DNA of 64,000 bases from Candidatus Ryanbacteria bacterium RIFCSPLOWO2_12_FULL_44_26 (GCA_001821765.1 MHOA01000006.1:4389-68388), one strand, 5' to 3'. Numbered from the stretch's first letter, positions 1,773-28,156 are shown. The notes: a model not told the origin generated them from the sequence alone. Numbers and translations: made by a program.

Positions 1773-1788
1773 CAACGCGCAACAATGC

Positions 1789-10254: not shown

Positions 10255-11112
10255 ATGCAATATATGTCCGTAAAAAAACACAAACACTCCGCTCATCGGC
10301 TCAATCCAAACATTTTCATGGGGCAGCATTTTTTAACCGCACCAGCCGTTCTTCGCAACATCATCGCTGCGGCGAAATTGACAAAAAAAGATACGGTCAT
10401 TGAGATAGGGCCGGGCAAAGGCATTTTAACAGAGGCGCTTATGGGGAGGGTAAAAAAAGTTATTGCGATAGAAAAAGACAAGCGCCTTGTTGCATATCTA
10501 AAAGATGCATTTAAAAACGAAAAAAATGTTGACATTATTGAGGGAGACATTTTAGAAATCGCCTCTCATCCGCATTCCGTCATACACCCCGCACTACAAG
10601 AAACATATAAAATAGTCGCGAATCTGCCCTACTACATCACCTCGCGGTTTTTGCGGGTTTTTCTTTCTCCAAAAACCTTCGCTCCCCCAATCTCCATGAC
10701 GCTTCTGGTCCAAAAAGAGGTGGCCGAACGCATTGTTTTAAGGCACCGAGGCAAGGAAAAAATGAGCCTTTTGGGGCTTTCTGTCGGGGCATACGGCAGT
10801 CCGAACATCATCGCTTCGGTAAAGCCGTCCGCCTTCAAGCCCGCTCCAAAGGTTCACTCGGCTATTTTGTCCATTGAACACATATCCGATGCATTTTTTA
10901 AAAAACACCGCATAGACCCGCAAATATTTTTCTTCATCGCAAAGCAGGCCTTTTCCAAAAAAAGAAAGATGCTCAAATCTTCTCTTGGCATAAAAAATCC
11001 TGCGTACTGCAAAAAGCGGCCGGAGGAGCTTTCTTTGGACGAGTGGGCGATTTTAACGCGAGAGATACTGCACAATGAACAAAAAACAAACAATACGCCG
11101 GATTTTTCTTAA
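10255..11112 (+). CDS. ksgA: 16S rRNA (adenine1518/1519-N6)-dimethyltransferase
   Basis: GQHFL...IEIGPGKGILTE ... ANLPYYITS motifs of the RsmA/KsgA family. Confidence 0.85.
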   Translation: MQYMSVKKHKHSAHRLNPNIFMGQHFLTAPAVLRNIIAAAKLTKKDTVIEIGPGKGILTEALMGRVKKVIAIEKDKRLVAYLKDAFKNEKNVDIIEGDILEIASHPHSVIHPALQETYKIVANLPYYITSRFLRVFLSPKTFAPPISMTLLVQKEVAERIVLRHRGKEKMSLLGLSVGAYGSPNIIASVKPSAFKPAPKVHSAILSIEHISDAFFKKHRIDPQIFFFIAKQAFSKKRKMLKSSLGIKNPAYCKKRPEELSLDEWAILTREILHNEQKTNNTPDFS

Positions 11113-11257: not shown

Positions 11258-12214
11258 TTGGGTTACCTATCAATTAAAAAAGCCTTCGCAATTGTTCTTA
11301 GTCTCGCTTTGGCGGGGGGAATTTCCTTTTTTTATTTTGACCTGAAGGAAAAATTCCCCAAAAGTGCAAAAGAAGGCGGCATATCAAAACCAAAGATCAC
11401 CGCGCGCACAGGAAACGGTTTGCCCGTATCTTTGGAGAACGGGAGGGGCTGGCGGGAACTGCTTGAAGAGATCCGGTTAAATATTCCGCTTGGAGATCAA
11501 AAAAAACCACCGGATACACCAGTCCTCTTATACGACGAAAACACATTGACAGGAAAGCTGGCCCAGGCAACGGCGGAGCGCTATTTTGAGTTAAAAAAAC
11601 TCTCTCCAAACCTCCCCACATCGGTCATAAACCAAAAAGGGTTTTCCAAAGAAATCGCGGAAGAAATCACGGCGCTCTATCTTGCCAATGGAGCAAACCC
11701 CTATGCCCCAAACAGCATAGCGGTCATAAAAAATGCCGATGTGAACGATCGTCGCCGGTATCTAAACGCGCTCGCGTACGTGCTCAAAACAAACTTCCCC
11801 GCCGGCAATAAGAACAACAGCAATGCCGCAGAAGAGGTGCCGAAAGAAATATTAATCATTCTTTCTACGCTCAAGACAAAACAGTATGAAACTCTTTCCG
11901 ACTTAGATCCGTATATCGCCCATTATGTAAACGCCGCTAAAGGATTTATATCAATACCGGTGCCCGGGGACTACGTTCAGTTTCACCTGCGCCTTAGCAA
12001 TTCTTTCGCAAACGTTGCCTACGCGCTTCAGTCCATGCAGAAATCCGGAAGCGATCCGGTCACGGCCGTTATGGGAAGAAATCTGTATTCAACAGAGATT
12101 AACGCTTCTCGTATTCTTATGACGTACTTAAAGCTGCAAATAGAAAAAAACGAGTTTGTTTTTTCTGCAGAAGAAGACGGGCATTATTTTTACCAATATA
12201 TTAACAAGATTTAA
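11258..12214 (+). CDS. Hypothetical N-terminally membrane-anchored protein
   Basis: 318 aa. N-terminal TM (FAIVLSLALAGGISFFYF). No recognisable domain. Confidence 0.4.
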   Translation: MGYLSIKKAFAIVLSLALAGGISFFYFDLKEKFPKSAKEGGISKPKITARTGNGLPVSLENGRGWRELLEEIRLNIPLGDQKKPPDTPVLLYDENTLTGKLAQATAERYFELKKLSPNLPTSVINQKGFSKEIAEEITALYLANGANPYAPNSIAVIKNADVNDRRRYLNALAYVLKTNFPAGNKNNSNAAEEVPKEILIILSTLKTKQYETLSDLDPYIAHYVNAAKGFISIPVPGDYVQFHLRLSNSFANVAYALQSMQKSGSDPVTAVMGRNLYSTEINASRILMTYLKLQIEKNEFVFSAEEDGHYFYQYINKI

Positions 12215-12222
12215 TTGCGGCC

Positions 12223-13443
12223 ATGACAGTCTTTAAAAACAATGTTATGCAACGACACCATAGAGGCGCTTTGGCGATGCTGCTTTTGCCCGGATGTATG
12301 TTATTTATCCCAAGCTACGCCTTCGCGCAACTGCAGGTGCCGGTATGGGATGAAGCGTTAAGCGGCACATTTGACGGTGATTTTGCATGGTTTAAAAGAA
12401 GTTTTGGCAGAGATCCTTATAGTCCAAATAGCTTTCGGGAAGATTTCAATGAAACGTTTGACCAAGGAGGCCTCCTAGAGGCTCCCATTTCCCTCATAGA
12501 AACAGGGCTCGCTGACTTTGGTGGCGGGTGGTTTTATGACGCCTGGATGGCGACGTTCGGGCCGTATGGGTGGTTTACGCAAAAAGAAGTGGGGACCAAG
12601 GGCTACTATGAAATACTCGGCAGCGGACAGACACTTATAGATTCATGGGATTCAATAGGGTTCTATCAGGAAAAGGACTTATTGAGCGAGGTGTCCAGAA
12701 CAATAACGGCGTTTCTTCTGGAAAGCCGCTACTCGCTGGAAGGCGGCGGCGGAGTGGCAGAGCCGCTCTTTGTCACCTTCACGCCGGACTATATGGACGC
12801 CGAAACGGACAACACCGCGGGTGTGTTTCTCGGAGATCAGTCGCTTACAAACGTATGCGAACCGTTTACGGAAAGTGTGCGAATCGCATTGGCATATCAA
12901 AAAAATAAAGAACAGATTACCTTTAACGAAAAGGCGGACTGCACAAACTTTAATCTGGAAACCTATTACGACAGTTTTCTTGGCGGCGGAGGATGGGATA
13001 CGTGGACGGATTCTTTTGATCCGCAAAACAACTTTTATGGATCGCTGATCATTGCGGAAAGCGAATTTATAGAAAGGGAAAACATCACCAATGCGGAACT
13101 AACCACAGAGCTTATCGGCGGGCAAGGAGTGCTTGACCTTCAGGTGTGTGTGGAAGCGATTACAGAAGACGGTTTTCCGTGTAGCGCCTACCCGGACGAC
13201 GGGTGTTTCTGCAAGACATTTGTCACCCGTACACACGCAAAGTCGGTTCAACAGCTCTTTACGCCTGTTCAGGATGCAAATCTTGAAGTCCGTGGGGATT
13301 CAGACGAACTGACAGAAGACGCGGTGGACGCAATCCTTAGCGCAATTGTCCCGTACGAGAGATATGACAATTTCTATGAGGGTTTCTACCAAGAAACAAT
13401 AAATGGCCTGTGGAGAGACGGCGCACAATGGTATCTTCCTTAA
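12223..13443 (+). CDS. Hypothetical secreted protein
   Basis: 406 aa. Signal-peptide-like N-terminus (ALAMLLLPGCMLFIPSYAFAQ). Acidic, with Trp/Gly-rich GGGG motifs. No recognisable domain. Confidence 0.4.
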   Translation: MTVFKNNVMQRHHRGALAMLLLPGCMLFIPSYAFAQLQVPVWDEALSGTFDGDFAWFKRSFGRDPYSPNSFREDFNETFDQGGLLEAPISLIETGLADFGGGWFYDAWMATFGPYGWFTQKEVGTKGYYEILGSGQTLIDSWDSIGFYQEKDLLSEVSRTITAFLLESRYSLEGGGGVAEPLFVTFTPDYMDAETDNTAGVFLGDQSLTNVCEPFTESVRIALAYQKNKEQITFNEKADCTNFNLETYYDSFLGGGGWDTWTDSFDPQNNFYGSLIIAESEFIERENITNAELTTELIGGQGVLDLQVCVEAITEDGFPCSAYPDDGCFCKTFVTRTHAKSVQQLFTPVQDANLEVRGDSDELTEDAVDAILSAIVPYERYDNFYEGFYQETINGLWRDGAQWYLP

Positions 13444-15853
13444 ACGCCGCAACATTCCAAAAGCACCACGGCATGATCTTACACGCAAGCAACACATGGC
13501 GAAGAGCATAAAACACATCGCCTATCACAGAGTGACGGTGAAACACGTTGTATTTTTTCTGGCAACAGGAACGATTTTGGCGGCGCTGACCGTTCCGCAC
13601 ATCGCCTCTGCCGCCAGCGCTCCGTGCGACGCGTGGGGATTTATTAACATTAAATTCACTGCGGACTGCTTCTCGTGGATCATCTTAAACATATTATATT
13701 TGCCGCTCTACTTGGCGGGATGGCTGCTGCGGTTTGTTGCGGGATTTTTTGACATCGCCGTAAACATTTCCATCCAAAACGGCGCGTACGATCCCGGAGC
13801 CATCCCTGTTATCGGCCTTGGGTGGGGCATCACCAGAGATGTCGCGACCATGTTTCTTATTTTTATACTCCTTATCATTGCCATCGGCATTATCCTCCGG
13901 CTCGAGCGATTCGGATCAAAACAAATTCTCACCTATTTAATCATTGTGGGCCTCCTCATCAACTTCAGCCTGCCTATTTCACAGCTTGTTATTGACGCGT
14001 CAAACGTTCTTGCCCTTACGTTCTATAACGGCTTAGCGGCCAATGCCGGAGCGAGTCCCGCGCCCGCCGCCGTTGGAGGGCTTTTTCCGGCTCCGGCCGG
14101 TATTGCGGGCGTATTTGTTGAAGGACTGGCTCCTCAAAAAACACTGGAAACAGGAAGAACAGCTCCCGGCACCGAAATACTATCGGCGGACGGGGGGGCG
14201 CTGGTTTTAAAGGTGCTCTTGAACGGTATTATTTCGATGCTCATGGGAATTGCTATTATTCTTACTGCCGCGTTCGTCCTCGGCGCGCTTGGAATTCTTT
14301 TTATCATACGGATGGTCGTCCTTTGGATAATCATGATTCTCGCTCCCCTTGCATTTATCGCCATGATACTTCCCGTCACCCGCAGCTACGCGACAAGATG
14401 GTGGCGGAAACTTTTTGAACAGTCCTTCTTTGCTCCTTTTGCGCTTTTTTTCTTCTATCTGGTTGGGAAAGTCATTGAGAGCGGATTTTTAAAAAACGTA
14501 TTTGGAGTTACCGGAAACACGATGGTTACTGATGCCGCGGCGATGTCCGTACTTGTCTCAAATGTCAGAATTATCGCGCAGTATATTGCGCTTATTGTGC
14601 TGCTTATTGCGTCACTCATCGTTTCAAAAGAGCTGAGCGCTTATGGGGCCACTACAGCATTGGCGACGGGGCGCAAAGCCGGAAAGAGCGCGCAAGGCGC
14701 GGCTGGGCGAGCCGCCAGAAGAACGGCGCTTCGGGCCGCCGGCGCTGTTGCCGGAGGGGTCGCGGCGACGAGAGCCGGCAGAGCTGTTATGAACATTGTT
14801 CCCGGGGGGCGGGCGGGCGTACAGCGCGCGATGAGCGAGGGCGCCGAAGCAAGGGACTACAGAGCCAAACAAGAAGCCGAGCGGGTAAAGAATCTCTCTC
14901 CATATGACCTTGCAAGAGCCGCTCCAACGCTGACGCCCGAGGCGCGAGCAAGACTCTTTAAAGGGTGGAGACCGGAACAGCGGGAAAAATATGTAGCAGA
15001 GCTGGAAAAACGCGGGGAGTTGAGTAGTTTTGTAAAAAGCGTTACTGGGGTGGCCAAGGGCGGGGGCGGGGAGCGTTACGCTGGAATTGAAAAAGATCTG
15101 GCAAAATCGGTCGCGCCGCACAACGCAGAAGAGGCACTTAAAATTTCAAACCCCGACGTATTCATCACCACTTCGGGAGGCGAAGAAAGGCTTCCCGAAT
15201 TTGAAAAAGGAGAAGCGGCAAGCGAACGGGCGCAACGGGCGGCAAACGACCTTTTTGCATCTCTTACTCCGGAACAGCGCGCAAAGATCACGCGCGGCAT
15301 CGGCGCCGCCGACACCAATATCGGGAAACGCTACCGCGAGTACATAACACAACAAGGAAAACTGAATGAATTTACGGCTGATCGCGAAACCATAAAACAC
15401 ACCAATCGGATGCTTAACCAAATAGCGGCCGACTACGACGTGGACGTAACAGTGCACATGGAAGAGGCGAGAAAGGAGGCGGAATTTTCCAAAATGAAAG
15501 CCGCCGCGGAATCAAAGGGTATTTCCACAAAAGTACAGGTGGAAAGCCCCGGACGGAAGATAGGAGAGGACAAAACGCACGAGGAGTTAAAACGCGAACT
15601 TGAGTTCGCCGGAGCAAAGGTTGAAGTAACCAATGAGGAGGTTGAGGAAATCGCCAAGCAGAAAACTCTCGCTAAAGTGCAGGAGCGGCTCCGACGGGAA
15701 GGAAAGGGGCAGTTTGCAGACCAACTCTCATCCAATATGGGGACACAGCTATTCTTCAGCCCCAAGCGAGTAGAGATTCGCGGGGGGGAAGAAAAGAAAG
15801 AGAGCGTCACGCGCGAAGATGTTGAGGAAATGATGGAAAGTAAAAAAACATAA
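13403..15853 (+). CDS. Polytopic membrane protein with charged coiled-coil C-terminal tail; candidate TrbL/VirB6-like T4SS component (likely true start ATG 13496)
   Basis: At least 6 predicted TM helices in the first 400 aa, then an Ala/Gly/Arg-rich linker and a long E/K-rich tail. Lies immediately upstream of PrgI-like and VirB4 genes. Assignment is by architecture and context, not by a sequence motif. Confidence 0.5.
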   Translation: MACGETAHNGIFLKRRNIPKAPRHDLTRKQHMAKSIKHIAYHRVTVKHVVFFLATGTILAALTVPHIASAASAPCDAWGFINIKFTADCFSWIILNILYLPLYLAGWLLRFVAGFFDIAVNISIQNGAYDPGAIPVIGLGWGITRDVATMFLIFILLIIAIGIILRLERFGSKQILTYLIIVGLLINFSLPISQLVIDASNVLALTFYNGLAANAGASPAPAAVGGLFPAPAGIAGVFVEGLAPQKTLETGRTAPGTEILSADGGALVLKVLLNGIISMLMGIAIILTAAFVLGALGILFIIRMVVLWIIMILAPLAFIAMILPVTRSYATRWWRKLFEQSFFAPFALFFFYLVGKVIESGFLKNVFGVTGNTMVTDAAAMSVLVSNVRIIAQYIALIVLLIASLIVSKELSAYGATTALATGRKAGKSAQGAAGRAARRTALRAAGAVAGGVAATRAGRAVMNIVPGGRAGVQRAMSEGAEARDYRAKQEAERVKNLSPYDLARAAPTLTPEARARLFKGWRPEQREKYVAELEKRGELSSFVKSVTGVAKGGGGERYAGIEKDLAKSVAPHNAEEALKISNPDVFITTSGGEERLPEFEKGEAASERAQRAANDLFASLTPEQRAKITRGIGAADTNIGKRYREYITQQGKLNEFTADRETIKHTNRMLNQIAADYDVDVTVHMEEARKEAEFSKMKAAAESKGISTKVQVESPGRKIGEDKTHEELKRELEFAGAKVEVTNEEVEEIAKQKTLAKVQERLRREGKGQFADQLSSNMGTQLFFSPKRVEIRGGEEKKESVTREDVEEMMESKKT

Positions 15854-15864
15854 ATATACATTAT

Positions 15865-16785
15865 ATGAAATATTATTCTAAGGAAACGCTCCTCGACCGG
15901 TATGAAAAACTCCCCCAAGAGCTGAAGGGCGCGATATTTGCGCAAGTGAATACCGACAATTTGTTAAAAATAGGAAGGAACAACAATCTTACATTTGACC
16001 AGATAGGCGCGATGGCCAGGGAAACCGGCTATGTCATTCTCGGCATTACACATCCCGCACGCTTTGTATACAAACTGAAAGAAAGTCTCAATATTGACAC
16101 CGCGAGGGCCAATGCCGTGGCGCGCGACATAAACAGGGAAATATTCCGTTCAATCTGGACAAATCTTCGCGAGGTCCACAACATCAAAGATGCCGCGACA
16201 TCTGATGAGGTGGTTGCGGGGAAAAAAGAGGGCGCGAGAACGCCAGCCCCCCAAAAAACGGAAACACCAACCGCTGAACGGGCTATAAACGCTCAACCAG
16301 AAACGGCAACACAAAAAGTGGCGCCCATGGTATTGCCCCAAAAGCCGCCCGCTACAAAAAAAGAACAAACAACACAAGAACAGATCCCCCCTCAAACCGA
16401 TGAACTATTTATCCCGATATTAAGAAAGGTTGCGCCTCCAGCGCGGGAGACGCCCGACGCCGAATACAAAAAAGAAGACGCGGAAGACGGACGAAGCGAA
16501 AAAGTTCAATTAGAACAGAGCGTCGTCATGCCGGAAAAAAAATTACAAGAAACAGTCGGGGCAGAAACACAACAAACGACATTCGCCCCTCTCCCCGAAA
16601 AATCCGAGACAGGCGAAAAAAGCGTTCCACAAGAACGCGCAACCCCGGAGCAACAAACACAAAAAGATATCAAAATGGTCTTCCCGGAAAAGTTTGCCGC
16701 AAAAAGCCCACCGGAGCAAAAAGACCAATCCAAAGAGTCTCCGCCTCCGCCCAAAATAGACCCTTACCGTGAATCGATAGAATAG
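15865..16785 (+). CDS. Hypothetical protein with Pro/Glu/Lys/Thr/Gln-rich low-complexity C-terminal half
   Basis: 306 aa. Globular N-terminal 100 aa followed by disordered repeats (PEQQTQKD..., PPEQKDQSKESPPPPK). Confidence 0.4.
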   Translation: MKYYSKETLLDRYEKLPQELKGAIFAQVNTDNLLKIGRNNNLTFDQIGAMARETGYVILGITHPARFVYKLKESLNIDTARANAVARDINREIFRSIWTNLREVHNIKDAATSDEVVAGKKEGARTPAPQKTETPTAERAINAQPETATQKVAPMVLPQKPPATKKEQTTQEQIPPQTDELFIPILRKVAPPARETPDAEYKKEDAEDGRSEKVQLEQSVVMPEKKLQETVGAETQQTTFAPLPEKSETGEKSVPQERATPEQQTQKDIKMVFPEKFAAKSPPEQKDQSKESPPPPKIDPYRESIE

Positions 16786-16851
16786 AACAAATTACTCATT
16801 AACCTATGTACAGCTACATATTATTCGCAAAGCTCTAAAATTCAGGTACAT

Positions 16852-17271
16852 ATGCAACAATTTCAGGTTCCACAATTCATTGACGTTGAGGATAAGATTA
16901 TAGGGCCGCTTACGCTAAAACAGTTTATATTTCTTGTTGTTGGCGGCGTGCTCGCTTACTTTATCAAGCGGGTGTTTCCGGACATTATATTCTGGGCGGT
17001 TGTCATTCCTATGGGGGGCGCGGTTGCCGCTTTGGCATTCTTAAAAGTAAACGGGCGGCCGCTTTCCCACACCGTCATCAGCGCCTTTAAGTTCTATGCC
17101 ACCTCTCGTCTGTACCTGTGGAGAAAAGGACAGAAAAAGAAACCATTGAAAGAAAAAACAAAACAGGAAGTGCGGCCCCTTGGGCAAATCGTCGGGCCGA
17201 AATTAACAAAAAGAAGACTGGAAGACCTGGCATGGAGTCTGGACGTTCATGAAAAGTTTAAACGCCAATAA
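16852..17271 (+). CDS. PrgI-like / VirB3-like small membrane protein (T4SS)
   Basis: 139 aa. N-terminus IDVEDKIIGPLTLKQFIFLVVGGVLAYFI plus a second TM, typical of PrgI-family proteins that precede VirB4 in Gram-positive-type conjugation loci. Confidence 0.5.
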   Translation: MQQFQVPQFIDVEDKIIGPLTLKQFIFLVVGGVLAYFIKRVFPDIIFWAVVIPMGGAVAALAFLKVNGRPLSHTVISAFKFYATSRLYLWRKGQKKKPLKEKTKQEVRPLGQIVGPKLTKRRLEDLAWSLDVHEKFKRQ

Positions 17272-17288
17272 TATGGTACAAATATAAT

Positions 17289-18008
17289 ATGTGGGAAGGG
17301 GCGCTAAAAAGCGCAAAACCAACTCAAGAAATCGTGCCGATAGAGGAGGTGCGGGATGGGATTGTGGTGTTAAAAAACAAAGGGCTTCGTTCCATTCTTA
17401 TGGCGTCCAGCATCAATTTTGCGCTGAAGTCTGCAGAAGAACAGGATGCCATTATTGTGCAGTTTCAAAATCTTCTAAACACCCTTGACTTCTCGCTCCA
17501 GTTTTTTATTCAATCCCGGCGGCTAAGAATTGAGCCGTATCTGGACCTGCTTCGGGAGAGACTGAAAGAACAGGCCAATGAACTGCTCCGCATCCAAACA
17601 ACAGAGTACATTGAATTTATTAAAAGTCTCGTTGAGAATTCTGACATCGTATCAAAAACATTTTATGTTGTGGTCCCTATAGACCCTGTTATTGTCGATA
17701 TAAAAGTCGGCTTTATTGATAAACTGTTCGGGAAACAAAAACAGCAAGATGGGGGCGGCAGGGGCCTTCCGCAAGAAAAATTTGAAGAATACCGCTATCA
17801 GCTTATCCAACGGGTAGATATTGTACATCAGAGCCTGCTTCGCTTTGGGGTAAGGGCCGTTCCTTTAAACACGGAGGAGATCATTGAGCTGTTTTACAAT
17901 TTATACAATCCCGGAGAAAGCAAAGAAGGAACAATGCCGGAAATAGGCGTGAAGACCGATATAGCGCCCGTAAAAGAAAGTATCAATGATGCGTATGGCT
18001 TTATTTAG
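17289..18008 (+). CDS. VirB4/TrbE N-terminal domain (appears separated from the ATPase domain by a frame change)
   Basis: 239 aa. IVPIEEVRDGIVVLKNKGLRSILMASSINFALKSAEEQDAIIVQFQNLLNTLDFSLQFFIQSRRL matches the characteristic N-terminus of Gram-positive VirB4 homologues. Ends 23 nt inside the next ORF in a different frame. Confidence 0.6.
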   Translation: MWEGALKSAKPTQEIVPIEEVRDGIVVLKNKGLRSILMASSINFALKSAEEQDAIIVQFQNLLNTLDFSLQFFIQSRRLRIEPYLDLLRERLKEQANELLRIQTTEYIEFIKSLVENSDIVSKTFYVVVPIDPVIVDIKVGFIDKLFGKQKQQDGGGRGLPQEKFEEYRYQLIQRVDIVHQSLLRFGVRAVPLNTEEIIELFYNLYNPGESKEGTMPEIGVKTDIAPVKESINDAYGFI

Positions 18009-19815
18009 ACGAGCAAAAAAAGCAGAAGCAGAACAGATGCTTCCCATCTATCCGCAGGAAATATTTGAAGCGGGACTCCTGGACTTAAAGGACGTCTTGG
18101 CTCCTTCCGCGTTTGAGGTCAGCCCGAGCGATATGCGGCTTGGGCAGAAATTCGTACAAACAATATTTGTTTTCTCGTATCCGAGATTTCTTGCAACCAA
18201 CTGGTTTTCCGGCGTTCTGAACCTAGACAAAGAGTTTGATGTTTCCCTTTTTGTGCATCCTGTTGATACCGCGATGATGCTAAGGAGGCTTAGAAAAAAA
18301 GTCGCGGAGGTTCAATCCCAGATTACAGAACGCGAAGAAAAAGGGCTGGTAAGAGACCCTATGCTGGACACCGCCTACCGTGATCTGGAAGACCTTAGAG
18401 ACAAACTCATGCAGGCGCGTGAGCACCTTTTCTCTTTTGGTCTTTACATCACCATCTATGCGGATTCAAAAAGAGATTTGGAGAAGACGGCATCACTGGT
18501 CCGCTCAATGCTTGACGCCAGACTCGTGCTTACGAAGCCGGCATTGTTTCAGCAAAAAGAGGGACTCAATTCCGTTTTCCCGCTGGCAATGGATCAGCTG
18601 AACGTGAACAATTATATGAACTCCGCTCCGCTCTCAAGCGTGTTCCCGTTCACCTCTTTTGACCTTACCTCAAACAAAGGAATACTCTTTGGCATAAACC
18701 GCCACAACAGCTCTCTGGTCCTTTTTGATCGATTCAGTTTTGAAAACTATAACTCCGTTGTCTTTGCAAAGTCTGGGTCGGGAAAATCCTATACGGCAAA
18801 GTTAGAGATTTTGCGTTCGCTTATGCTGGACACCGATGTCATTGTTATAGATCCGGAACGAGAATATGAATATCTCGCTGAAACGGTGGGCGGGAGGTAT
18901 TTCAATATTGCTTTGACTTCAAAACACCACATCAACCCCTTTGATCTTCCTCCTCCACGCGAAGACGAATCTCCGACCGACATTCTTCGTTCACATGTGA
19001 TAAGTCTTGTGGGACTATTTAGAATCATGCTCGGCGGGCTCACTCCTGAAGAGGACGCGATCCTTGACCGTTCAATTAACGAAACCTATGCATCAAAAGA
19101 CATAACGCCGGAAACTGACTTTTCAAAAAAACCCCCTCCGCTGCTTTCCGACCTGGAACTGGTGCTTGCCAGCATGGTCGGCGCCGAATCGCTGGCAATA
19201 CGCCTTAGGAAATTCACCACCGGCACGTGGGGCGGGTTTATCAATCAACACACCAACGTTGACGTTCACAACCAGCTCGTCGTGTTTTCGGTGAGGGACA
19301 TGGAAGACGAACTGCGACCGGTCGCGATGTATTTGATTGTTCAATTCGTTTGGGGGGCAATTCGAAGAGAAATGAAAAAACGGCTTCTCGTGGTAGATGA
19401 GGCGTGGTGGATTATGAAAACTGAAGATGGCGCCTCGTTCCTGTACGGACTTGCGAAGCGGGCACGTAAATATTATCTCGGACTTGCAACGATAACGCAG
19501 GATGTCGCTGACTTTATGGGCTCTCCTTACGGGAAACCCATCATCACAAACTCCTCTATTCAGATGTTGCTCAAACAGTCCCCGGGCACCATTGATGTCG
19601 TGCAAAAAACTTTTAATCTCACCGAGGAGGAAAAATTTTTGCTCCTTGAATCCGACGTGGGGGAGGGAATATTCTTCGCCGGATTAAAACATGTCGCAAT
19701 AAAGATCATTGCCTCATATACCGAGCACCAAATTATCACCTCCGATCCGTCGGAACTTTTGGCCATTAAAAAAGCAAAAGAGGAATATATGGCAAATAAA
19801 GGGGGCAATGTTTAA
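17986..19815 (+). CDS. virB4: VirB4/TrbE/CagE-family type IV secretion ATPase (C-terminal portion incl. Walker A)
   Basis: 609 aa. VVFAKSGSGKSYTAKLEILRS (Walker A), VVDEAWWIM (Walker B) and ITQDVADF motifs typical of VirB4/TraC. Confidence 0.85.
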   Translation: MMRMALFRRAKKAEAEQMLPIYPQEIFEAGLLDLKDVLAPSAFEVSPSDMRLGQKFVQTIFVFSYPRFLATNWFSGVLNLDKEFDVSLFVHPVDTAMMLRRLRKKVAEVQSQITEREEKGLVRDPMLDTAYRDLEDLRDKLMQAREHLFSFGLYITIYADSKRDLEKTASLVRSMLDARLVLTKPALFQQKEGLNSVFPLAMDQLNVNNYMNSAPLSSVFPFTSFDLTSNKGILFGINRHNSSLVLFDRFSFENYNSVVFAKSGSGKSYTAKLEILRSLMLDTDVIVIDPEREYEYLAETVGGRYFNIALTSKHHINPFDLPPPREDESPTDILRSHVISLVGLFRIMLGGLTPEEDAILDRSINETYASKDITPETDFSKKPPPLLSDLELVLASMVGAESLAIRLRKFTTGTWGGFINQHTNVDVHNQLVVFSVRDMEDELRPVAMYLIVQFVWGAIRREMKKRLLVVDEAWWIMKTEDGASFLYGLAKRARKYYLGLATITQDVADFMGSPYGKPIITNSSIQMLLKQSPGTIDVVQKTFNLTEEEKFLLLESDVGEGIFFAGLKHVAIKIIASYTEHQIITSDPSELLAIKKAKEEYMANKGGNV

Positions 19816-19821
19816 AGACGC

Positions 19822-20607
19822 TTGCTCGCATTGATCAATATGGACGAACAACGCACAACGGGACAACAGAGCGAAGAACAGCGACCAGAGCGCGCAATGG
19901 AAAATCGTCGGCTCTCAGGGCTTAACCGCGCTCGGCGCGGGGGCTTAAGAGAATCACTCAGCTTGGTTAAAGAAGCGGCGCACACCACAAAAGCGATTGC
20001 GGAATCGACTGTTGCTATCGGGGCTGTCATCGCCGCAATTCCCACAGGAGGAAGGTCTCTGAATGTTGCGCGCGTGGCAGCGCGTGCGGCGATCAAAGAC
20101 GTCACGCGCGCCGTGCGTGAGCATCGCCGCCGCACGAAAATGAGAGAAAAAAGAAACCGCGAGGATGGTGGAATGCGAGAAAAAAAACAAGACATTCCAC
20201 TTGTAGAAGGAGCGCTATTCGCCGGGTTTCTGTTTTTTCTTTTTGACGTGCCGCAGATGATACTTGCTCTTTTTATTATCGGCATTTTTCTAAACTGGAT
20301 TATAAGCCTCTTCGGCTGGCTCGCTGTTTATATATGGCTAAAAAGAAAAGGGTATTCATTGCTTGATATAAATGATATAAAAAAAGGGTATGGCTCATTG
20401 CTCTTTTTGTTCTCTGGGATGGCCGGAGCGGACGTTGCCACTTTGATTGCGCCGTGCCTCGCCCTTTTTGTTATTATATTTGTTTTGAAAATAAAAGCGG
20501 AAAGGCTCCTTGCAAGGGTGATCGGCAACAAGTCAGCGCAAAAAGCATTATATCCAACATCAAGTCTGGCTGGGCCGCTGATGCTAAATCAAAACACTAA
20601 AAAATAA
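19822..20607 (+). CDS. Hypothetical membrane protein (Arg-rich N-terminus, 3-4 TM C-terminal half)
   Basis: 261 aa. TM helices (LFAGFLFFLFDVPQMILALFIIGIFLNWIISLFGWLAVYIW; LIAPCLALFVIIFVL). Lies inside the T4SS-like cluster. Confidence 0.4.
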   Translation: MLALINMDEQRTTGQQSEEQRPERAMENRRLSGLNRARRGGLRESLSLVKEAAHTTKAIAESTVAIGAVIAAIPTGGRSLNVARVAARAAIKDVTRAVREHRRRTKMREKRNREDGGMREKKQDIPLVEGALFAGFLFFLFDVPQMILALFIIGIFLNWIISLFGWLAVYIWLKRKGYSLLDINDIKKGYGSLLFLFSGMAGADVATLIAPCLALFVIIFVLKIKAERLLARVIGNKSAQKALYPTSSLAGPLMLNQNTKK

Positions 20608-20614
20608 AAGCGCC

Positions 20615-21688
20615 ATGACCGCAAGACTAACAATAAAAACCGTGCCACTTCTGTTTATGCTGTTCGTGTTTTCTGTTGCGCCCTCTACGACAAGCTCCCA
20701 GCCTCTGCCCGAAGCGGGCGGCACGGAAGACGGTGTCAGCGACGCCGTTTCTGATTTTCTAAAAAAACAAGAAAGCCGCTACCGCGCTTTCACGATATCC
20801 ATTCTTATAAAGCCGCAAACACCCGGACCGGGGGGGGTGGTTCGGGCAGTTGCGCAAGGTTTTGGTCGCAACCTCTCGGAAGAAATCATTGTGTGGTACA
20901 AAAACGGGAAGGAAGTGTTCCGCGGACGAGGAGAAACAACGTATGATCTTACAGCCGGCGCGCTAGGATCGGAAACCACAATCACCGCGTCTGTCATATT
21001 TCCCGACGGCGTAGTGAGGTCTGCAACCGAAACGGTTCGTCCGTCAGTGGTGCACCTTATATGGGAAGCAAAAACGCAAGTCCCGCCATGGTATAAAGGA
21101 AAGGCCGTCCCGTCTCCCGGGTCAAATATTGTTGTGGAGGCGATCCCCAAACTCTTTTTCAACGGTTCACCGCTTGATCCCGATAACTTAAACTACACAT
21201 GGAAAATAAATAATCAAACTCAGATACATGCATCAGGCAAAGGCAAACACGCAATACGGTTTCGTGCGGATAACATTGTTGGAGCGGTAAAAAACATTTC
21301 CCTCACCGTCTCAAGCGCAACGGGTGTGGTCAGCGCCAACGGCTCTATTTCCATTCCGGTCTACCGTCCCAAGGTGCTCCTATACAAAGAAGAGCCCCTC
21401 ATTGGAGCAAAAAATGAAAATGCTCTTAACACAATAACAGTGGTTTCGGGCGAAGACGCCTTGCTTCGCGCAGAACCGTTTTTCTTTAACAAAGGCGCCG
21501 CCAACAACCTTGAATACACATGGCGAGTGAACAATGATATTGTGACGGGATCCCAACGAAGCTCGCCGGTGCTGACATTAAAAACGGAATCCGGCGTGAG
21601 CGGAGAACAAGGCATTAATGTTTCCGTGAAGAACCCGGAAAATACTTTTCAAACAACAAACACATTAATTAACGCCTATGTGGAATAA
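20615..21688 (+). CDS. Secreted protein with three tandem ~100-aa repeats (beta-sandwich-like)
   Basis: 357 aa. Signal peptide (LLFMLFVFSVAPSTTSS). The repeat motif recurs three times (IVWYKNGKEV..., NYTWKINNQ..., EYTWRVNND...). Confidence 0.5.
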   Translation: MTARLTIKTVPLLFMLFVFSVAPSTTSSQPLPEAGGTEDGVSDAVSDFLKKQESRYRAFTISILIKPQTPGPGGVVRAVAQGFGRNLSEEIIVWYKNGKEVFRGRGETTYDLTAGALGSETTITASVIFPDGVVRSATETVRPSVVHLIWEAKTQVPPWYKGKAVPSPGSNIVVEAIPKLFFNGSPLDPDNLNYTWKINNQTQIHASGKGKHAIRFRADNIVGAVKNISLTVSSATGVVSANGSISIPVYRPKVLLYKEEPLIGAKNENALNTITVVSGEDALLRAEPFFFNKGAANNLEYTWRVNNDIVTGSQRSSPVLTLKTESGVSGEQGINVSVKNPENTFQTTNTLINAYVE

Positions 21689-22100
21689 TTGGAAAAGGCT
21701 TGTTTGGCTGTTTGCTCTCACTGCTCTATTTCTACTCGGCGCGGTCGGGGTTTCTTTGGCACAAACGTATCGGCTTAGTGCGCCGCTCCCCGGGGGCTCA
21801 ACAGAGGTCGGGACCTTCGCCGACTACACAAACAGCTTGTTTCCGTTTATGCTATCGCTCGCCGCCGGCCTTGCGTTTATCATGCTTATCATCGGCGGGT
21901 TGCAGTATATAGCGGCCGCCGGAAACCCCTCGCGCATCAGCGAAGCAAAAAGCCGCATCATCCACGCGGTCTTGGGCTTGTTGCTTGCCGCTCTTTCCGT
22001 TGTCATACTAAGAGCAATTAATCCGGATCTGGTAAACCTCAAGATAGATGTCGAGCCGGTAGGAAGATTTGAGGACCAAGGAGGCGGAGGGGGAATGTAA
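21678..22100 (+). CDS. VirB2/TrbC-like pilin candidate
   Basis: 140 aa. Signal peptide plus two hydrophobic helices separated by a short loop (LFPFMLSLAAGLAFIMLIIGGLQYIAAAGNP...IIHAVLGLLLAALSVVIL), and a Gly-rich C-terminus. This is the T4SS pilin architecture. Assignment is by architecture only. Confidence 0.5.
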   Translation: MWNNWKRLVWLFALTALFLLGAVGVSLAQTYRLSAPLPGGSTEVGTFADYTNSLFPFMLSLAAGLAFIMLIIGGLQYIAAAGNPSRISEAKSRIIHAVLGLLLAALSVVILRAINPDLVNLKIDVEPVGRFEDQGGGGGM

Positions 22101-22106
22101 TTAGCT

Positions 22107-23285
22107 TTGCTTTCTATGTCAAGAAAAAAGAAAATTATTATCATAGCGTCAATGGGGGCGGTCTTGCTGATTATTGCCCTTGCGGCGCTTTTGCTTTTGG
22201 GAAGAGAAAACAAAGACGGGTTCCTCGACAACCTGTTTAGCGGGGGGTTTTCGCTCCCGGGCGGCAAAGACATAGATTTGGAGGACGATGACGGCGCGGT
22301 AACTGGTGGCGCAGAGAGCCGGTCGGCGCTCTTCATGGTTTCCGACGGTCCCGTTGCGGCGGCAACCATAAGCGGGGACGGAGACGGGGTGCTTTTCTAT
22401 CGAAGTGACGTCGGGCATCTCTATAAGACGGCTCTCACGGGAGGGGCAGCGGAACGGGTTTCAAATCTTACCATTCCTTCAACAATAAATGCCGAATGGT
22501 CTACAGAAAAAGAAACGGCAATGGTTACATTTATAGAAGAAAATAGAGCGCTTAGGTATTTTGTGCTTCACTATGTCGGAACAACCACGGAAGGAGTCGT
22601 CCTCCCCAAAGAAACGTATGCGGCAACGCTGTCACCAAACGGCGAGAACATCGCGTACGCTGTCGCGGTTGGCGACGGCGCCTCGGTGGTAATCGCCAGC
22701 TCTTCAGGAAAAGAACAAAAAAACGTCCTTTTCAGCGAGTTGGCAGATATTGAGCTTTCTTGGATAACTGACGATCTTCTTTTCCTAAAGACGAGGTCTT
22801 CGGCTTTTGCTCCAAGCATACTTTGGTCTCTCTCCGTTTCCGGAAAGACACAAACCCTTCTTACGCCTAAAGAAGGGTTGGGTGTTCTTTTCTCGCCGGA
22901 TGGTGGCCGGTTTCTCTACTCCGAAACGCTCCGCGGCGGCAGAGATTTGGCGTTGTATGTTGCCAATAACAACGATGAGTATTTAAAGCTTCCCGCAACC
23001 ACATTAAGTGAAAAATGTGTTTGGTCAAACAAACAAACCGGTGTTGTGTTTTGTGCGGTCCCGCAAAAACTTTCGGGTTTGCCGCTTCCCGATTCGTGGT
23101 GGAGCGGTGAGGTGTCGTTCATAGACGACTTATGGAGAATTGACACGGAAACCGGCGAGGCAACAATGGTTTGGGATCAAAACGACTTCGACATGGTAAA
23201 AATGTTCCTGTCCCCAGAAGAAGACTATCTTTTCTTTGTGAATAAAAAAGATTCTACGTTGTGGGCAGTTCGGTTGGCTTCTTAG
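22107..23285 (+). CDS. TolB-like WD40/beta-propeller repeat protein, N-terminally anchored
   Basis: 392 aa. N-terminal TM, then repeated LSPNGENIAYAV / FSPDGGRFLYSE-type TolB propeller blades. Confidence 0.55.
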   Translation: MLSMSRKKKIIIIASMGAVLLIIALAALLLLGRENKDGFLDNLFSGGFSLPGGKDIDLEDDDGAVTGGAESRSALFMVSDGPVAAATISGDGDGVLFYRSDVGHLYKTALTGGAAERVSNLTIPSTINAEWSTEKETAMVTFIEENRALRYFVLHYVGTTTEGVVLPKETYAATLSPNGENIAYAVAVGDGASVVIASSSGKEQKNVLFSELADIELSWITDDLLFLKTRSSAFAPSILWSLSVSGKTQTLLTPKEGLGVLFSPDGGRFLYSETLRGGRDLALYVANNNDEYLKLPATTLSEKCVWSNKQTGVVFCAVPQKLSGLPLPDSWWSGEVSFIDDLWRIDTETGEATMVWDQNDFDMVKMFLSPEEDYLFFVNKKDSTLWAVRLAS

Positions 23286-23859: not shown

Positions 23860-24565
23860 CGCTCTCGTGCACTATAGCAAAAATATTCATCACTGTCCAA
23901 TAAAGCGTCAGTGCTGCTGAAAATCTAATGCCAATGAAAAATATTATAAAAGGAAACACATACTGCATCTGTGTTCGCATGGCATGTTGGAAGTCTTTTC
24001 CGAATGACTCTTTCTTTTCGCTTTTATCTATTTGTTTGTTTTTTTCTTCGGCTGGGTAAGCCAACTTTATCTGAAAGTACTGTGACAAGCCCGCCAGCGC
24101 CGCCAAGACAACGCTGCTTTTTACAAGATCGATGCCGAGAAAAATGGAATTGACCCCGTCAGGGACGGACACAAAAGAGTATAACACAGCCGAGATGTCG
24201 CCCTGCAGCCCTCCTTCAAAAATTCTAAGGAGCGCTATGAGAACCGGGAGCTGAATTAAAAGCATAAATATTCCGGAGAACGGGCTTACGCCGTGTTTCT
24301 TATACAACCCCATTGTTGCACGCGCCTGTTCTTCTTTTTTGTTTTTATATCGCTCTTTTATCTTTTGCAGTTCTGGTTCCAGTTTTTTCATTGCTGTCTG
24401 TGTTTTTGCCATTTTGTGCTGAAACGGAAACAAAACGAGCCGAACAAGAATCGTTACCATAATAATTGCCAATCCCAAACTATGGCTCGGTGAAATGTTT
24501 GTGAAAAACACAAGGGCATTAAAAAGGGGTTTATAAAAAAATTCAGTGTAAACAAATGTAAACAT
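23822..24565 (-). CDS. yidC: Membrane protein insertase YidC/Oxa1 (short form)
   Basis: 247 aa. Multi-TM with the conserved core of short YidC (LFNALVFF..., PFQHKMAKTQTAMKKLEPELQKIKERYKNKKEEQARATMGLYKKHGVSPFSG). Confidence 0.85.
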   Translation of the reverse strand: MFTFVYTEFFYKPLFNALVFFTNISPSHSLGLAIIMVTILVRLVLFPFQHKMAKTQTAMKKLEPELQKIKERYKNKKEEQARATMGLYKKHGVSPFSGIFMLLIQLPVLIALLRIFEGGLQGDISAVLYSFVSVPDGVNSIFLGIDLVKSSVVLAALAGLSQYFQIKLAYPAEEKNKQIDKSEKKESFGKDFQHAMRTQMQYVFPFIIFFIGIRFSAALTLYWTVMNIFAIVHESVVRRRASALGYE

Positions 24566-24566
24566 G

Positions 24567-24935
24567 TTATGGTAAGAGTTGTAATTTTCTTATAAGAAAA
24601 ATGACGTCTTTTTTTATTTGAGCAAATGACGCGCCATTAGACAGAGGGAGCGCGCGTATAACAACATCATAACCGGGCCCCATAAAAGGAACAACAAAAA
24701 GTCTCAACACTTCCCGCGTCTTGCGTTTAACGGCGTTTCTCTCAATGGTTTTTCTCGAAACCGTTTTTGACACCACAACGCCGATTTGAGGTTCCCCAGC
24801 CCTTTTAGTTGGGAGCGCTTGCGCAACAAAAAAGAACGTTTGAGCTTTTCTGCCTTTTTTCAGAACAAGTTTATATTGTTTTGGGTTTTTTAGACGACTC
24901 GCGGCCGGGAGCATTGAGTTTCGCCTAAACCACAA
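24567..24935 (-). CDS. rnpA: Ribonuclease P protein component
   Basis: [12 protein letters not shown]...[21 protein letters not shown]...[14 protein letters not shown] is typical of RnpA. TTG start in the track; a shorter form from MLPAAS is likely. Overlaps the rpmH stop. Confidence 0.85.
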
Positions 24936-25059
24936 GTCTTTTTCTTCCTTTTCTCCTTCTTCTGGAAAGAATCCGCCTGCCTGTTTTGCTTCTTTTTCTT
25001 ATACGGAACCCGTGAGTTCTTTTGCGTTTTCTAGTTTTTGGTTGATATGTGATAGACAT
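24925..25059 (-). CDS. rpmH: 50S ribosomal protein L34
   Basis: Not in the ORF track (44 aa). Hand translation of the minus strand gives [44 protein letters not shown], a clear L34 sequence directly upstream of rnpA. Confidence 0.85.
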
Positions 25060-25214
25060 AATGTGCGACTCTATTATACACATTTAATCAACAATTTGTA
25101 AACAATCAGACCATAAATGTTTGATTTCCGCAATATTGAAAACTTCATGTAGAATATACTAATAATATTAATATGCACAACAACATTCCATATGTTTTTT
25201 GTACTTGAGTTATT
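25060..25214. promoter_or_regulatory. Candidate oriC segment / divergent promoter region between rpmH and dnaA
   Basis: AT-rich 155 bp. Contains DnaA-box-like TTATACACA (25074-25082) and a 1-mismatch box ATATGCACA (25181-25189). It has the classic rpmH|dnaA position. Confidence 0.4.
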
Positions 25215-26576
25215 ATGAACCACAAAGATCTCTGGAAACAAGTATTAAACCAGATAGAGCTGGATACATCCAAGGCAAACTTTGCAACGTGGTTTCAGAA
25301 CACAAACCTGGAAAGCATTGACGACGGGAGAGCTGTTGTCTCGGTGCCAAACGCCTTTGCCAAAGAGTGGTTGGAAAAGAAATACCACAAATCAATCGTG
25401 AGGGCGCTGCGCGGTCAAGCAAATTCCATCCGGTCTGTTGGGTATTTAATTTCTTCACAAAAAGACTTTGAAAAACAACACGTCAAACCGAACAGCAAGG
25501 CCGCTTTAAACGAGGAACAACTGGAGTTTAAGGAATTCTCGGTAGATCGGGAGACAAATCTCAACCCCAAGTACACATTCGACACATTCATCGTCGGCTC
25601 GTTTAACGAGCTGGCCCATGCCGCAGCCCTATCAATAACAAAAAACCTTGGTGCGTTGTATAACCCGTATTTCATTTACGGCGGCGTCGGGTTGGGGAAA
25701 ACACACCTTCTACAGGCAATCGGCAACGAGGTAAAAAAAAGAAACCCAATCTTAAAAATCTTATATCTGACGTCTGAGAAGTTTATGAACGAGCTTATTT
25801 CGCTTATTCAAAACAGAGAGCCACTCAATTCATTTAAAGAAAAATACCGGAACGTCGATCTACTTATTATAGACGACGTTCAATTTATAGCCGGTAAAGC
25901 TAAAACGGAGGAAGAATTCTTTCACACTTTTAATGTGTTATACGAAAACGGAAAACAGATTGTGTTTTCGTCCGATCGTCCGCCGCAAGCGATCCCAAAC
26001 CTGGAAGAGCGGCTTCGTTCAAGATTTGAGGCTGGGCTTATTGCCGATATTGGTGAACCAGAATATGAAGCGCGTCTCGCAATACTAAAGTCAAAGATTT
26101 CCGGGAGTGCGCGTCCATTATCTGATGAGGTGTTAGAATACATCGCTTCTGTAATACAAAAAAACATCAGAGAGCTTGAGGGGGCGCTTAATTTATTAAA
26201 TGCAAAAGAAAAGGTTAAAGAGGCGCCTCTAACGCTCGATGAAGTAAAAAATACCCTCAATCAACTCAGCGCGCGCTCTCAACGGGTTGTTTCTACTCAA
26301 CAGATACTAAAAGTGGTTTCGGTGTTTTATAATATTGACGAAAGAGACCTGCTGGCGCGAAGCAGGAAGCGTGAGATTGTAAAGCCGAGACAGGTGGCCA
26401 TGTACCTTATTCGTGAAGACTTTAACGGATCTTACCCATATATAGGACAAAAACTTGGCGGCAGAGACCACACAACCGCACTGCATGGTTATGATAAAAT
26501 TTCTAAGGCGCTAAAAAAAGACGCAAAACTTGTGGAAGAGTTGAGGTTAATCCGTGAAAAATTGTACAAATCATAA
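25215..26576 (+). CDS. dnaA: Chromosomal replication initiator protein DnaA
   Basis: 453 aa. AAA+ Walker A GGVGLGKTHLLQAIGNE, Walker B LLIIDDVQF, and the C-terminal DNA-binding domain (VAMYLIREDFNGSYPYIGQKLGGRDHTT). Confidence 0.95.
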   Translation: MNHKDLWKQVLNQIELDTSKANFATWFQNTNLESIDDGRAVVSVPNAFAKEWLEKKYHKSIVRALRGQANSIRSVGYLISSQKDFEKQHVKPNSKAALNEEQLEFKEFSVDRETNLNPKYTFDTFIVGSFNELAHAAALSITKNLGALYNPYFIYGGVGLGKTHLLQAIGNEVKKRNPILKILYLTSEKFMNELISLIQNREPLNSFKEKYRNVDLLIIDDVQFIAGKAKTEEEFFHTFNVLYENGKQIVFSSDRPPQAIPNLEERLRSRFEAGLIADIGEPEYEARLAILKSKISGSARPLSDEVLEYIASVIQKNIRELEGALNLLNAKEKVKEAPLTLDEVKNTLNQLSARSQRVVSTQQILKVVSVFYNIDERDLLARSRKREIVKPRQVAMYLIREDFNGSYPYIGQKLGGRDHTTALHGYDKISKALKKDAKLVEELRLIREKLYKS

Positions 26577-26751
26577 ACCCAGACATCCTAATTGCTCCGC
26601 TTATAAAACACACATACACAGGTTATACAATAAAAGTTAGATTTTGTTTGATTAATAAAGCTGTTGTGTGTCTCTTTTTTTGGTATTGTTCACATATACC
26701 TCCCTACAGTAATAACAACTGTTTATATATATAGATTTTATTATTATCTCC

Positions 26752-27861: not shown

Positions 27862-27862
27862 C

Positions 27863-28156
27863 ATGGCCCTTTTAAAACTTTCAAACCTTCTCAATAAAAG
27901 AGCGAAACAACTCTTGTGTAAAGAGGTTCGTGACAGCAAAGACATAGCCGAAATTGTACAACTTTTTTTAAACGAAAGAAGCGTAAAAACAGACATTTCC
28001 ATAAAAAACATCAAATACACCGGAAACACTTTAACCTTAACGCTTGGTTCCAGTGTGTTAAAGTATCAACTCTACGCACTCGAGGAAGAATTGTTAGATC
28101 GTCTTAACAAAACATTTCCTTTCCGGGAACCATTTTCTAAAATTCGATTTCGATAG
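27863..28156 (+). CDS. DUF721 / DciA-like small protein downstream of dnaN
   Basis: 97 aa. C-terminal NTLTLTLGSSVLKYQLYALEEELLDRLNK resembles the DUF721 pattern (L.V.v.ss.w.qeL...ll.kLN), in the conserved dnaN-adjacent position. Confidence 0.5.
   Translation: MALLKLSNLLNKRAKQLLCKEVRDSKDIAEIVQLFLNERSVKTDISIKNIKYTGNTLTLTLGSSVLKYQLYALEEELLDRLNKTFPFREPFSKIRFR

Follow-up and report, generated by a model that had tools for sequence, protein, structure and literature searches.

A run of genes beside dnaA in the genome of Candidatus Ryanbacteria bacterium RIFCSPLOWO2_12_FULL_44_26 (GCA_001821765.1) raises the question of which machine it encodes, and whether that machine serves conjugation or another kind of contact between cells. 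The genes occupy positions 11258 to 23285 of a 64,000-nucleotide stretch (MHOA01000006.1:4389-68388; hereafter the window, with positions counted from its first nucleotide), and the public database entries for all of their products are hypothetical proteins. The locus is an origin-proximal type IV secretion system (T4SS) gene cluster without a relaxase, typical of ultrasmall Patescibacteria.

Eleven consecutive and tightly packed genes were found on the plus strand between 11258 and 23285, the last nine open reading frames (ORFs) spanning 13403-23285. Intergenic gaps at the locus ranged from 6 to 66 nt, and two pairs of ORFs overlapped, at 17986-18008 (23 nt) and 21678-21688 (11 nt). The locus was bounded by ksgA on one side and by jag, yidC, rnpA, rpmH and dnaA on the other. 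An earlier note, made from the sequence alone, had described a same-strand run of tightly spaced or overlapping genes at 13403-23285, and the ORFs lie where it placed them; its arrangement stands, whereas its count of eight becomes nine, because the N and C parts of VirB4 count as two.

A scan of one genome per species recovered 80 related loci, all from metagenome-assembled genomes of Patescibacteria. These were Giovannonibacteria, Niyogibacteria, Ryanbacteria, Parcubacteria and Paceibacterota, with many third-party annotation records generically labelled 'Saccharibacteria'. The order of genes was shared in up to 80 loci, beginning with ksgA, two further genes, VirB6, a protein named here for its C-terminal DPYRE motif, PrgI, TrsD and VirB4, and continuing from VirB4 with a small transmembrane (TM) protein, an immunoglobulin-like (Ig) protein, the pilin, a beta-propeller protein, jag, yidC, rnpA, dnaA and dnaN. 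Recurrence on this scale, across up to 80 related genomes, rules out chance as the source of the arrangement. This comparison with other Patescibacteria had been proposed in the earlier note, together with searches of the neighbours of VirB4. Matches to the VirB2, VirB3 and VirB6 families were found among these neighbours, with PrgI and the pilin above curated cut-offs, and the neighbours were syntenic rather than scattered over unrelated contexts.

The motor of the system is a VirB4-family ATPase of 609 aa (17986-19815, plus strand) of the monoderm MPF_FATA (CD1110) type. It scored 348 bits against NF045971 (cut-off 325) and matched PF19044 at 4.8e-24, and its translation contained both a Walker A (AKSGSGKS) and a Walker B (LLVVDEA) motif. 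The preceding ORF (17289-18008, plus strand) encoded a TrsD-like protein of 239 aa, a separate homologue of the VirB4 N-terminal domain. Its NCBIfam matches were all below curated cut-offs, and included the CD1110 VirB4 model (positions 2-118), the Mbov_0397 VirB4 model (positions 100-233, E 6.8e-9) and NF041427 TrsD/TraD (E 3.2e-5). The 609-aa protein covered positions 178-732 of the CD1110 model and, judged from these alignments, the two proteins are jointly one full VirB4. TrsD-like protein and VirB4 were distinct ORFs in 72 of 73 related loci, separated by small gaps or joined by short overlaps. The split thus goes back to an ancestor, and a frameshift or a pseudogene was ruled out as its cause.

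The membrane partner of VirB4 is a PrgI/VirB3-like protein of 139 aa (16852-17271, plus strand) with two hydrophobic helices, which scored 37.4 bits against PF12666 (cut-off 27). A tblastn match to PrgI was obtained in 73 of the 80 loci, immediately 5' of TrsD. The largest product of the set was an extended VirB6/TrbL-like polytopic protein of 785 aa (13496-15853, plus strand), or of 816 aa if read from the ATG at 13403; public entries conflict over the start, giving either length. About 7-8 hydrophobic segments were found in its N-terminal half (~400 aa), and the C-terminal half was charged. PF04610 (TrbL) was matched by 18 of 49 syntenic, alignable orthologues (best E 3.5e-10), and a profile of the family's TM domain found its best match in the whole PDB in TrwI, the VirB6 of R388 (7o3v_F, E 0.0094). 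Through these orthologues, the 785-aa protein is accepted at the family level as an extended member of VirB6/TrbL. Its charged C-terminal half probably forms a cytoplasmic tail, as suggested by the positive charge with which the tail begins.

The VirB2-like T4SS pilin of 140 aa (21678-22100, plus strand) was encoded 1.9 kb downstream of virB4 and combined a signal peptide with two hydrophobic helices. It scored 41.4 bits against PF18895 (T4SS_pilin, cut-off 26.6) and matched the NF045849 Mbov_0395 pilin-like model at E 3.2e-5. No further pilin copy was found in the 64-kb window, so that this gene is single there. All four of these components had been anticipated in the earlier note. The PrgI/VirB3-like two-TM protein and the two-helix pilin with signal peptide were borne out above their curated cut-offs, the split of VirB4 into N and C parts proved real and conserved as a TrsD-like gene followed by VirB4, and the ~800-aa polytopic protein with a charged tail was upheld as VirB6-like at the level of its family.

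Accessory and envelope proteins

Downstream of the translocon genes, a protein of 357 aa (20615-21688, plus strand), secreted or anchored, was modelled with AlphaFold2 as three Ig-like beta-sandwiches at residues ~58-142, 145-250 and 253-356. Conserved tryptophans (W94, W196 and W303) recur 102-107 residues apart. The AlphaFold2 models of accessory proteins took alignments of database homologues as input; for the 357-aa protein a single-sequence homologue search returned only 4 proteins, and the search was redone with an alignment. For one of the accessory families modelled, both large and uniform, 2095 representative clusters were obtained at E<=1e-30, nearly all of 320-350 aa. On its model, the three-Ig protein could act in the system as an adhesin or as a stalk in the cell envelope. 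A role as a VirB8/TcpC-like component, for which its position made it the best candidate, was also considered for this protein and rejected, the model showing three Ig-like sandwiches and no NTF2 fold.

The last gene of the cluster (22107-23285, plus strand) encoded an anchored propeller of 392 aa, with a TM helix, a disordered linker of ~35 residues and a seven-bladed beta-propeller. The AlphaFold2 model (mean predicted local distance difference test score 86.7) placed the helix at residues 6-31 and ~28 strands over residues 75-389, and Foldseek matched it to seven-bladed propellers at E ~1e-12. A weak PD40 match was obtained in Pfam, and a pair of cysteines (C304/C316) was conserved. The protein was 100% identical to a deposited Candidatus Ryanbacteria hypothetical protein. 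The TTG start of the ORF is probably too far 5': orthologue N-termini suggest the ATG at 22116, and the NCBI entry begins at 22152 (377 aa).

Between VirB6 and PrgI, a protein of 306 aa (15865-16785, plus strand) without any TM segment consisted of a conserved N-terminal domain of ~110 aa, a variable disordered linker rich in P, E, K and Q, and a C-terminal DPYRE(P/S)IE followed directly by the stop codon. Proline, glutamate and lysine made up 9.5, 11.1 and 9.8% of the protein. The tail motif (16759-16785) was near-invariant and present in the same gene of 31 loci, and occurred nowhere else in the window; D299, Y301 and E303 were invariant in an alignment of 46 orthologues. Searches of Pfam, NCBIfam and PDB gave no match to this protein, its orthologues and family profile included. 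The tail resembles a short peptide of the docking or secretion-signal kind, and the protein may be an adaptor or a substrate.

A small membrane protein (19822-20607, plus strand; 261 aa from TTG), charged at its N-terminus and crossing the membrane with 3-4 TM segments, filled the interval between VirB4 and the Ig protein. Its TTG start is also probably too far 5', orthologue N-termini suggesting the ATG at 19840. Only 4 loci gave tblastn matches to it; an ORF of at least 100 aa nevertheless occupied the VirB4-to-Ig gap in 44 of 66 loci, usually with 2-4 TM segments, and many of these ORFs bore an N-terminal ENER..L..AR-like motif. By sequence and place, this small polytopic gene is fast-evolving with its position kept across loci.

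Four of these proteins had been called by architecture in the earlier note. The secreted protein with three tandem repeats turned out to carry three Ig-like domains, the structure model of the anchored TolB-like protein contained both the TM helix and a seven-bladed propeller, the P/E/K-rich composition of the low-complexity protein was recovered, and 3-4 segments were counted in the multi-TM protein.

Two further genes precede VirB6. The first (11258-12214, plus strand) encoded an N-terminally anchored extracellular protein of 318 aa with a TM-like segment at residues 4-29. The window copy gave no Pfam match, and 13 of 19 orthologues contained PF18884 (TSP3_bac, calcium-binding repeats). The second (12223-13443, plus strand) encoded a secreted protein of 406 aa with a signal-like segment at residues 17-35; C212, C240 and W258 were invariant in 25 orthologues. 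No consistent Pfam or PDB sequence match was found for the 406-aa family, in which orthologues showed only scattered Ig/Fn3 add-ons. Profile searches of PDB sequences with the 406-aa, 318-aa and 306-aa families returned nothing relevant, and those with the 318-aa and 406-aa families returned no VirB8-type chain. The two proteins are probable peripheral members of the locus. Their inclusion, raised as a possibility by the earlier note, is plausible but weaker than that of the other genes, because they were syntenic in only about half of the loci spanning the interval.

None of the eleven locus proteins matched a cell-wall hydrolase family in Pfam or NCBIfam. A secreted protein with Peptidase_M23 and LysM domains was encoded at 6967-8070 (minus strand), ~3 kb upstream of the cluster and ~5.4 kb from the VirB6-like gene. 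It could be the cell-wall hydrolase of the system, since M23 and LysM domains are noted in the literature for VirB1-like proteins of Patescibacteria.

Conservation and relation to known systems

Presence of each gene was counted only over loci whose contigs spanned the stated interval. VirB6, PrgI and TrsD were each present in 37/37 loci spanning ksgA to VirB4, and the DPYRE protein in 25/37. Over the interval from VirB4 to yidC, the pilin and the propeller were each found in 44/49 loci and the Ig protein in 43/49, and among loci spanning ksgA to VirB6 the 406-aa protein was found in 18/37 and the 318-aa protein in 15/37. Identity of VirB4 was 60-75% across the 80 Patescibacteria loci. Median identities decreased from VirB4 (70%) to TrsD (52%), PrgI (43%) and the pilin (41%), and were lowest (26-34%) for the VirB6-like, cytoplasmic DPYRE-tail and surface proteins.

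A monophyletic clade of Patescibacteria VirB4 proteins nested in MPF_FATA is described by Quinonero-Coronel et al. 2025 (PMC12102498). According to these authors, TrsD is the commonest associated component of these systems, PrgI-type VirB3, VirB6 and VirB2-like pilins of PF18895 or PF04956 occur near virB4, VirB8 and VirB1 are scarce, relaxases are found in only 103 of 3,035 Patescibacteria genomes, and the T4SS of Paceibacteria and Microgenomatia lies beside dnaA, dnaN, rnpA, rpmH and ksgA. All features listed there for the clade were found at the present locus, which shares with it the MPF_FATA-type VirB4, the separate TrsD-like gene, PrgI/VirB3, VirB6 and the PF18895 pilin, as well as the lack of a nearby relaxase and the chromosomal place beside dnaA/dnaN/rnpA/rpmH/ksgA. 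The locus differs from the prototype of the clade in having no peptidase or lysozyme directly 3' of virB4. The three-Ig, anchored propeller and DPYRE-tail proteins present here are not mentioned in the main text of that paper.

By identity, the closest relatives of VirB4 were those of Patescibacteria (60-75%); among more than 5000 plasmid records, the best match reached no more than 36%. Sequence comparison supports the placement of the locus in the Patescibacteria T4SS clade, a kind of system that is already known, since it matches the descriptions of Quinonero-Coronel et al. 2025 and of Wang et al. 2023 (PMC10633639). It is a clean and complete example of the Paceibacteria arrangement and no new kind of system. 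The earlier note's suggestion of a non-conjugative T4SS of the candidate phyla radiation type agrees with the origin of the DNA from Candidatus Ryanbacteria and with the published clade (near dnaA, no relaxase; PMC12102498). Exact sequence matches assign the proteins to Candidatus Ryanbacteria, an uncultivated lineage represented by metagenome-assembled genomes from Rifle groundwater.

Wang et al. 2023 studied the system of Candidatus Southlakia epibionticum ML1 experimentally, whereas the present locus is known from its genes alone. S. epibionticum has a six-gene pilin array, in contrast to the single pilin gene found here. The authors noted that its system lacks coupling and relaxase proteins (PMC10633639).

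Conjugation systems of the MPF_FATA class (CTn2 CD1110 of C. difficile, pCF10 Prg/Pcf and pGO1 Trs) share with the locus the CD1110 equivalog VirB4, the PrgI-type VirB3 and the lack of outer-membrane core proteins, and pGO1 Trs also shares the TrsD-like N-domain gene. In contrast to them, the locus contained no type IV coupling protein (T4CP), relaxase or PrgB-type adhesin, and no VirB8-like (PrgL/TcpC) or VirB1-like (PrgK/CD419) gene was recognised in it. The locus further differs in its VirB2-like pilin and in being a fixed chromosomal set rather than a mobile element.

The nearest plasmid relatives belong to monoderm Actinomycetota and Bacillota, namely the plasmids of Embleya sp. NBC_00896 (NZ_CP108778.1; module L081:4583-8420) and Pontibacillus sp. 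ALD_SL1 (NZ_CP062975.1, a megaplasmid; module L082:4492-10806), whose VirB4 proteins were 32-36% identical to the present one. Both share a PF18895 pilin, a long TrbL/VirB6-like protein, PrgI, a TrsD-like protein and VirB4; the TrsD-like protein of the window was 32% identical (E 3e-27) to the product of the gene before VirB4 on the Pontibacillus plasmid. Unlike the present locus, both plasmids have the pilin upstream of VirB6 and are without Ig-like, propeller and DPYRE-tail genes. PrgI is fused to the TrsD-like part in Embleya, where a VirD4-type T4CP, a replication-relaxation (relaxase-like) protein and an NlpC/P60 hydrolase follow, and an M23 peptidase of 1050 aa comes after the module in Pontibacillus. 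The Embleya pilin ORF was absent from the PLSDB gene table.

Because PF18895 pilins adjoin plasmid VirB4 genes, VirB2-like pilins also occur in monoderm T4SSs outside Patescibacteria. The plasmid modules bear on a question left open in the 2025 paper (PMC12102498), inheritance or later co-option of the patescibacterial pilin, and suggest that it may derive, like the rest of the system, from a monoderm ancestor and not from co-option of a diderm component.

Diderm VirB/Trw systems (Agrobacterium VirB and R388 Trw) share the VirB2-type pilin, VirB3, VirB4 and VirB6 with the locus, and among solved structures R388 TrwI is the one that the VirB6-like family matches best. They differ by their outer-membrane core of VirB7/9/10 and by VirB5, VirB8, VirB11 and VirD4, none of which was recognised in the locus, whereas the split VirB4 and the charged VirB6 tail of ~365 aa set the present locus apart.

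Function of the secretion system

Pfam scans of 35 of the window ORFs of at least 150 aa outside the locus detected no VirD4-type coupling protein, relaxase, VirB11 or integrase, in agreement with the absence of the first three noted earlier. These ORFs belonged to housekeeping families only, apart from two without any match. The combination by which a conjugative element is recognised (relaxase, T4CP and integrase or replication functions) was not found among the ORFs scanned in the 64-kb window. Given this lack of relaxase, coupling protein and integrase among the ORFs scanned, and a position fixed across species, the locus is not a conjugation machine.

The locus very probably encodes a non-conjugative T4SS that serves interaction with the host as a conduit on which epibiotic life depends, and through which protein or nucleic acid would move between symbiont and host. 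By analogy with established VirB-type systems, a VirB4 hexamer, with TrsD as its detached N-domain, would dock in the single membrane on VirB6 and PrgI/VirB3 and extract processed pilin from this membrane, which would polymerise into a thin tube or pilus. This tube would cross the wall with the help of the Ig-like and propeller proteins and then contact the host cell. The part that crosses the wall or touches the host is probably formed or stabilised by the Ig-like and propeller proteins, both tethered outside the membrane. With no coupling protein present, the VirB6 tail and the DPYRE-tail protein are the candidates for handling substrates. The accessory genes that accompany the core in dozens of genomes (three-Ig, propeller, DPYRE(P)IE-tail and small polytopic) are unannotated, and offer concrete candidates for roles in handling substrates and contacting the host.

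Few envelope machines are conserved in Patescibacteria; the T4SS is among them, and it was essential in the only species tested: in S. epibionticum, transposon sequencing found the T4SS (SEML1_0006-0019) and the pilin array to be essential for epibiotic growth (Wang et al. 2023, PMC10633639; PMC12857230). In a cultivated Minisyncoccota parasite, uptake of host RNA and tubular structures at the parasite-host interface, tentatively T4SS pili, have been described (bioRxiv 10.64898/2026.06.21.733656). A 2024 perspective called the role of the Patescibacteria T4SS 'completely unknown' (PMC11665869).

The other readings differ in what would pass through the channel, if anything. An integrated conjugative element, as a remnant or an active core exporting DNA to other cells, would agree with the membership of VirB4 in the CD1110/MPF_FATA conjugation family, and with plasmid relatives that share the pilin-VirB6-PrgI-TrsD-VirB4 module, to which Embleya adds a T4CP and a relaxase-like protein. 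Besides the lack of mobility genes among the ORFs scanned in 64 kb, however, the flanks are core genes, the insertion point from ksgA to jag/yidC/dnaA is identical in dozens of species, the GC content of the locus (0.46-0.52) is close to that of its neighbourhood and without contrast to the rest of the window, and the scarcity of relaxases reported for Patescibacteria (PMC12102498) points the same way. This reading is very improbable, and a mobile element was rejected. The lack of relaxase and T4CP among the ORFs scanned would equally suit a DNA-uptake machine (ComB- or Ced-like), a T4SS whose reversed action would bring in DNA from the environment or the host, as a source of nucleotides or for transformation. 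Patescibacteria are without nucleotide biosynthesis, and T4SS-mediated uptake has been proposed for them (PMC11665869). The matches of VirB4 to archaeal importers in NCBIfam (CedB 7e-12, CedD 2e-5) were weak, however, reaching 44.8 bits against a cut-off of 700 for CedB and 23.4 against 600 for CedD, which reflects general similarity within the VirB4 family. Transformation of S. epibionticum needs comEC, and comEC is dispensable for growth whereas the T4SS is essential, so the T4SS is not the transformation route in that species, a member of the Saccharibacteria (2025 FEMS review, PMC12857230). Uptake of DNA is for these reasons an unlikely function.

An adhesive pilus or surface structure that attaches to the host without translocating a substrate is unlikely. 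The VirB2-like pilin does adjoin Ig-like and propeller surface proteins, folds that are common in adhesins, and the fast evolution of the extracellular parts, at 26-41% identity where VirB4 keeps 70%, fits host-specific contacts. On the other hand, type IV pili already give Patescibacteria adhesion and motility, and a PilB ATPase is encoded in the window. The complete VirB3/VirB4/VirB6 translocon and the long, probably cytoplasmic VirB6 tail also suggest transport; this is weak evidence, because assembly of a pilus needs the same parts. A more specific form of the conduit can be imagined as a feeding tube of Paceibacteria. Here a VirB2-like pilus, supported in the wall by the three-Ig protein and the propeller, would pierce the host envelope and import macromolecules of the host, for example RNA or nucleotides. 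The missing coupling protein would have its substitute, a module for substrate handling or gating, in the long VirB6 tail and the cytoplasmic DPYRE(P)IE-tail protein. Such a feeding tube is speculative and rather unlikely in all its parts; if true, the conserved accessory set would define a new functional subtype of T4SS.

Several points weigh against the host-interaction conduit favoured here. A T4CP could be encoded elsewhere in the genome, and many distant T4CP homologues occur in Patescibacteria according to PMC12102498. Taken by itself, the VirB6-like copy of the window had no significant Pfam or NCBIfam match (TrbL E 7.6, residues 142-353), and the locus showed neither a VirB8-like nor a VirB1-like component. 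The conservation of VirB4, which exceeded that of DnaA in 40 of 42 genomes and speaks for the conduit, was measured on loci found through their similarity to VirB4, which biases the comparison. Lastly, we infer the formation of a pilus, its cargo and the direction of transport.

Flanking genes and the remainder of the window

Upstream of the cluster, the window encoded UvrD/PcrA (8194-10164) and KsgA/RrnaAD (10255-11112). On the downstream side, Jag/KhpB (R3H), YidC, rnpA and rpmH lie on the minus strand, and dnaA (25215-26576) and dnaN (26752-27861) follow beyond them. A scan for sigma-70 promoters and terminators was uninformative, with 9 promoter-like sites against 12.8 expected.

Families represented among the 35 ORFs scanned included polynucleotide phosphorylase (PNPase), a ComM-like protein, the M23/LysM peptidase, PBP1, PilB, PolA, UvrB, RuvABC, a tRNA synthetase and TsaD/E. 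The assembly ATPase of PilB type (type II secretion/type IV pilus; 34151-35824, minus strand) matched PF00437 at 1.8e-113 and establishes the presence of a type IV pilus system, ~11 kb away from the T4SS. An adjoining ORF of 283 aa (35839-36690, minus strand) gave no Pfam match. A protein with RNase_H_2 and WYL domains and a membrane protein of DUF5671 (49174-49977 and 57146-58087, both plus strand) belong to uncharacterised families with no evident link to the T4SS.

At the beginning of the window, an NYN-domain RNase-like protein, PNPase (RNase_PH/KH/S1) and a ComM/YifB-type Mg-chelatase-like ATPase were encoded on the plus strand (1257-3969 and 5386-6927). PNPase has been linked to feeding on host RNA in the same phylum by a 2026 preprint. 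The lowest GC content of the window (0.38-0.41) was found at 24000-28000, over rpmH, dnaA, dnaN and their intergenic regions, as expected of a replication origin region.

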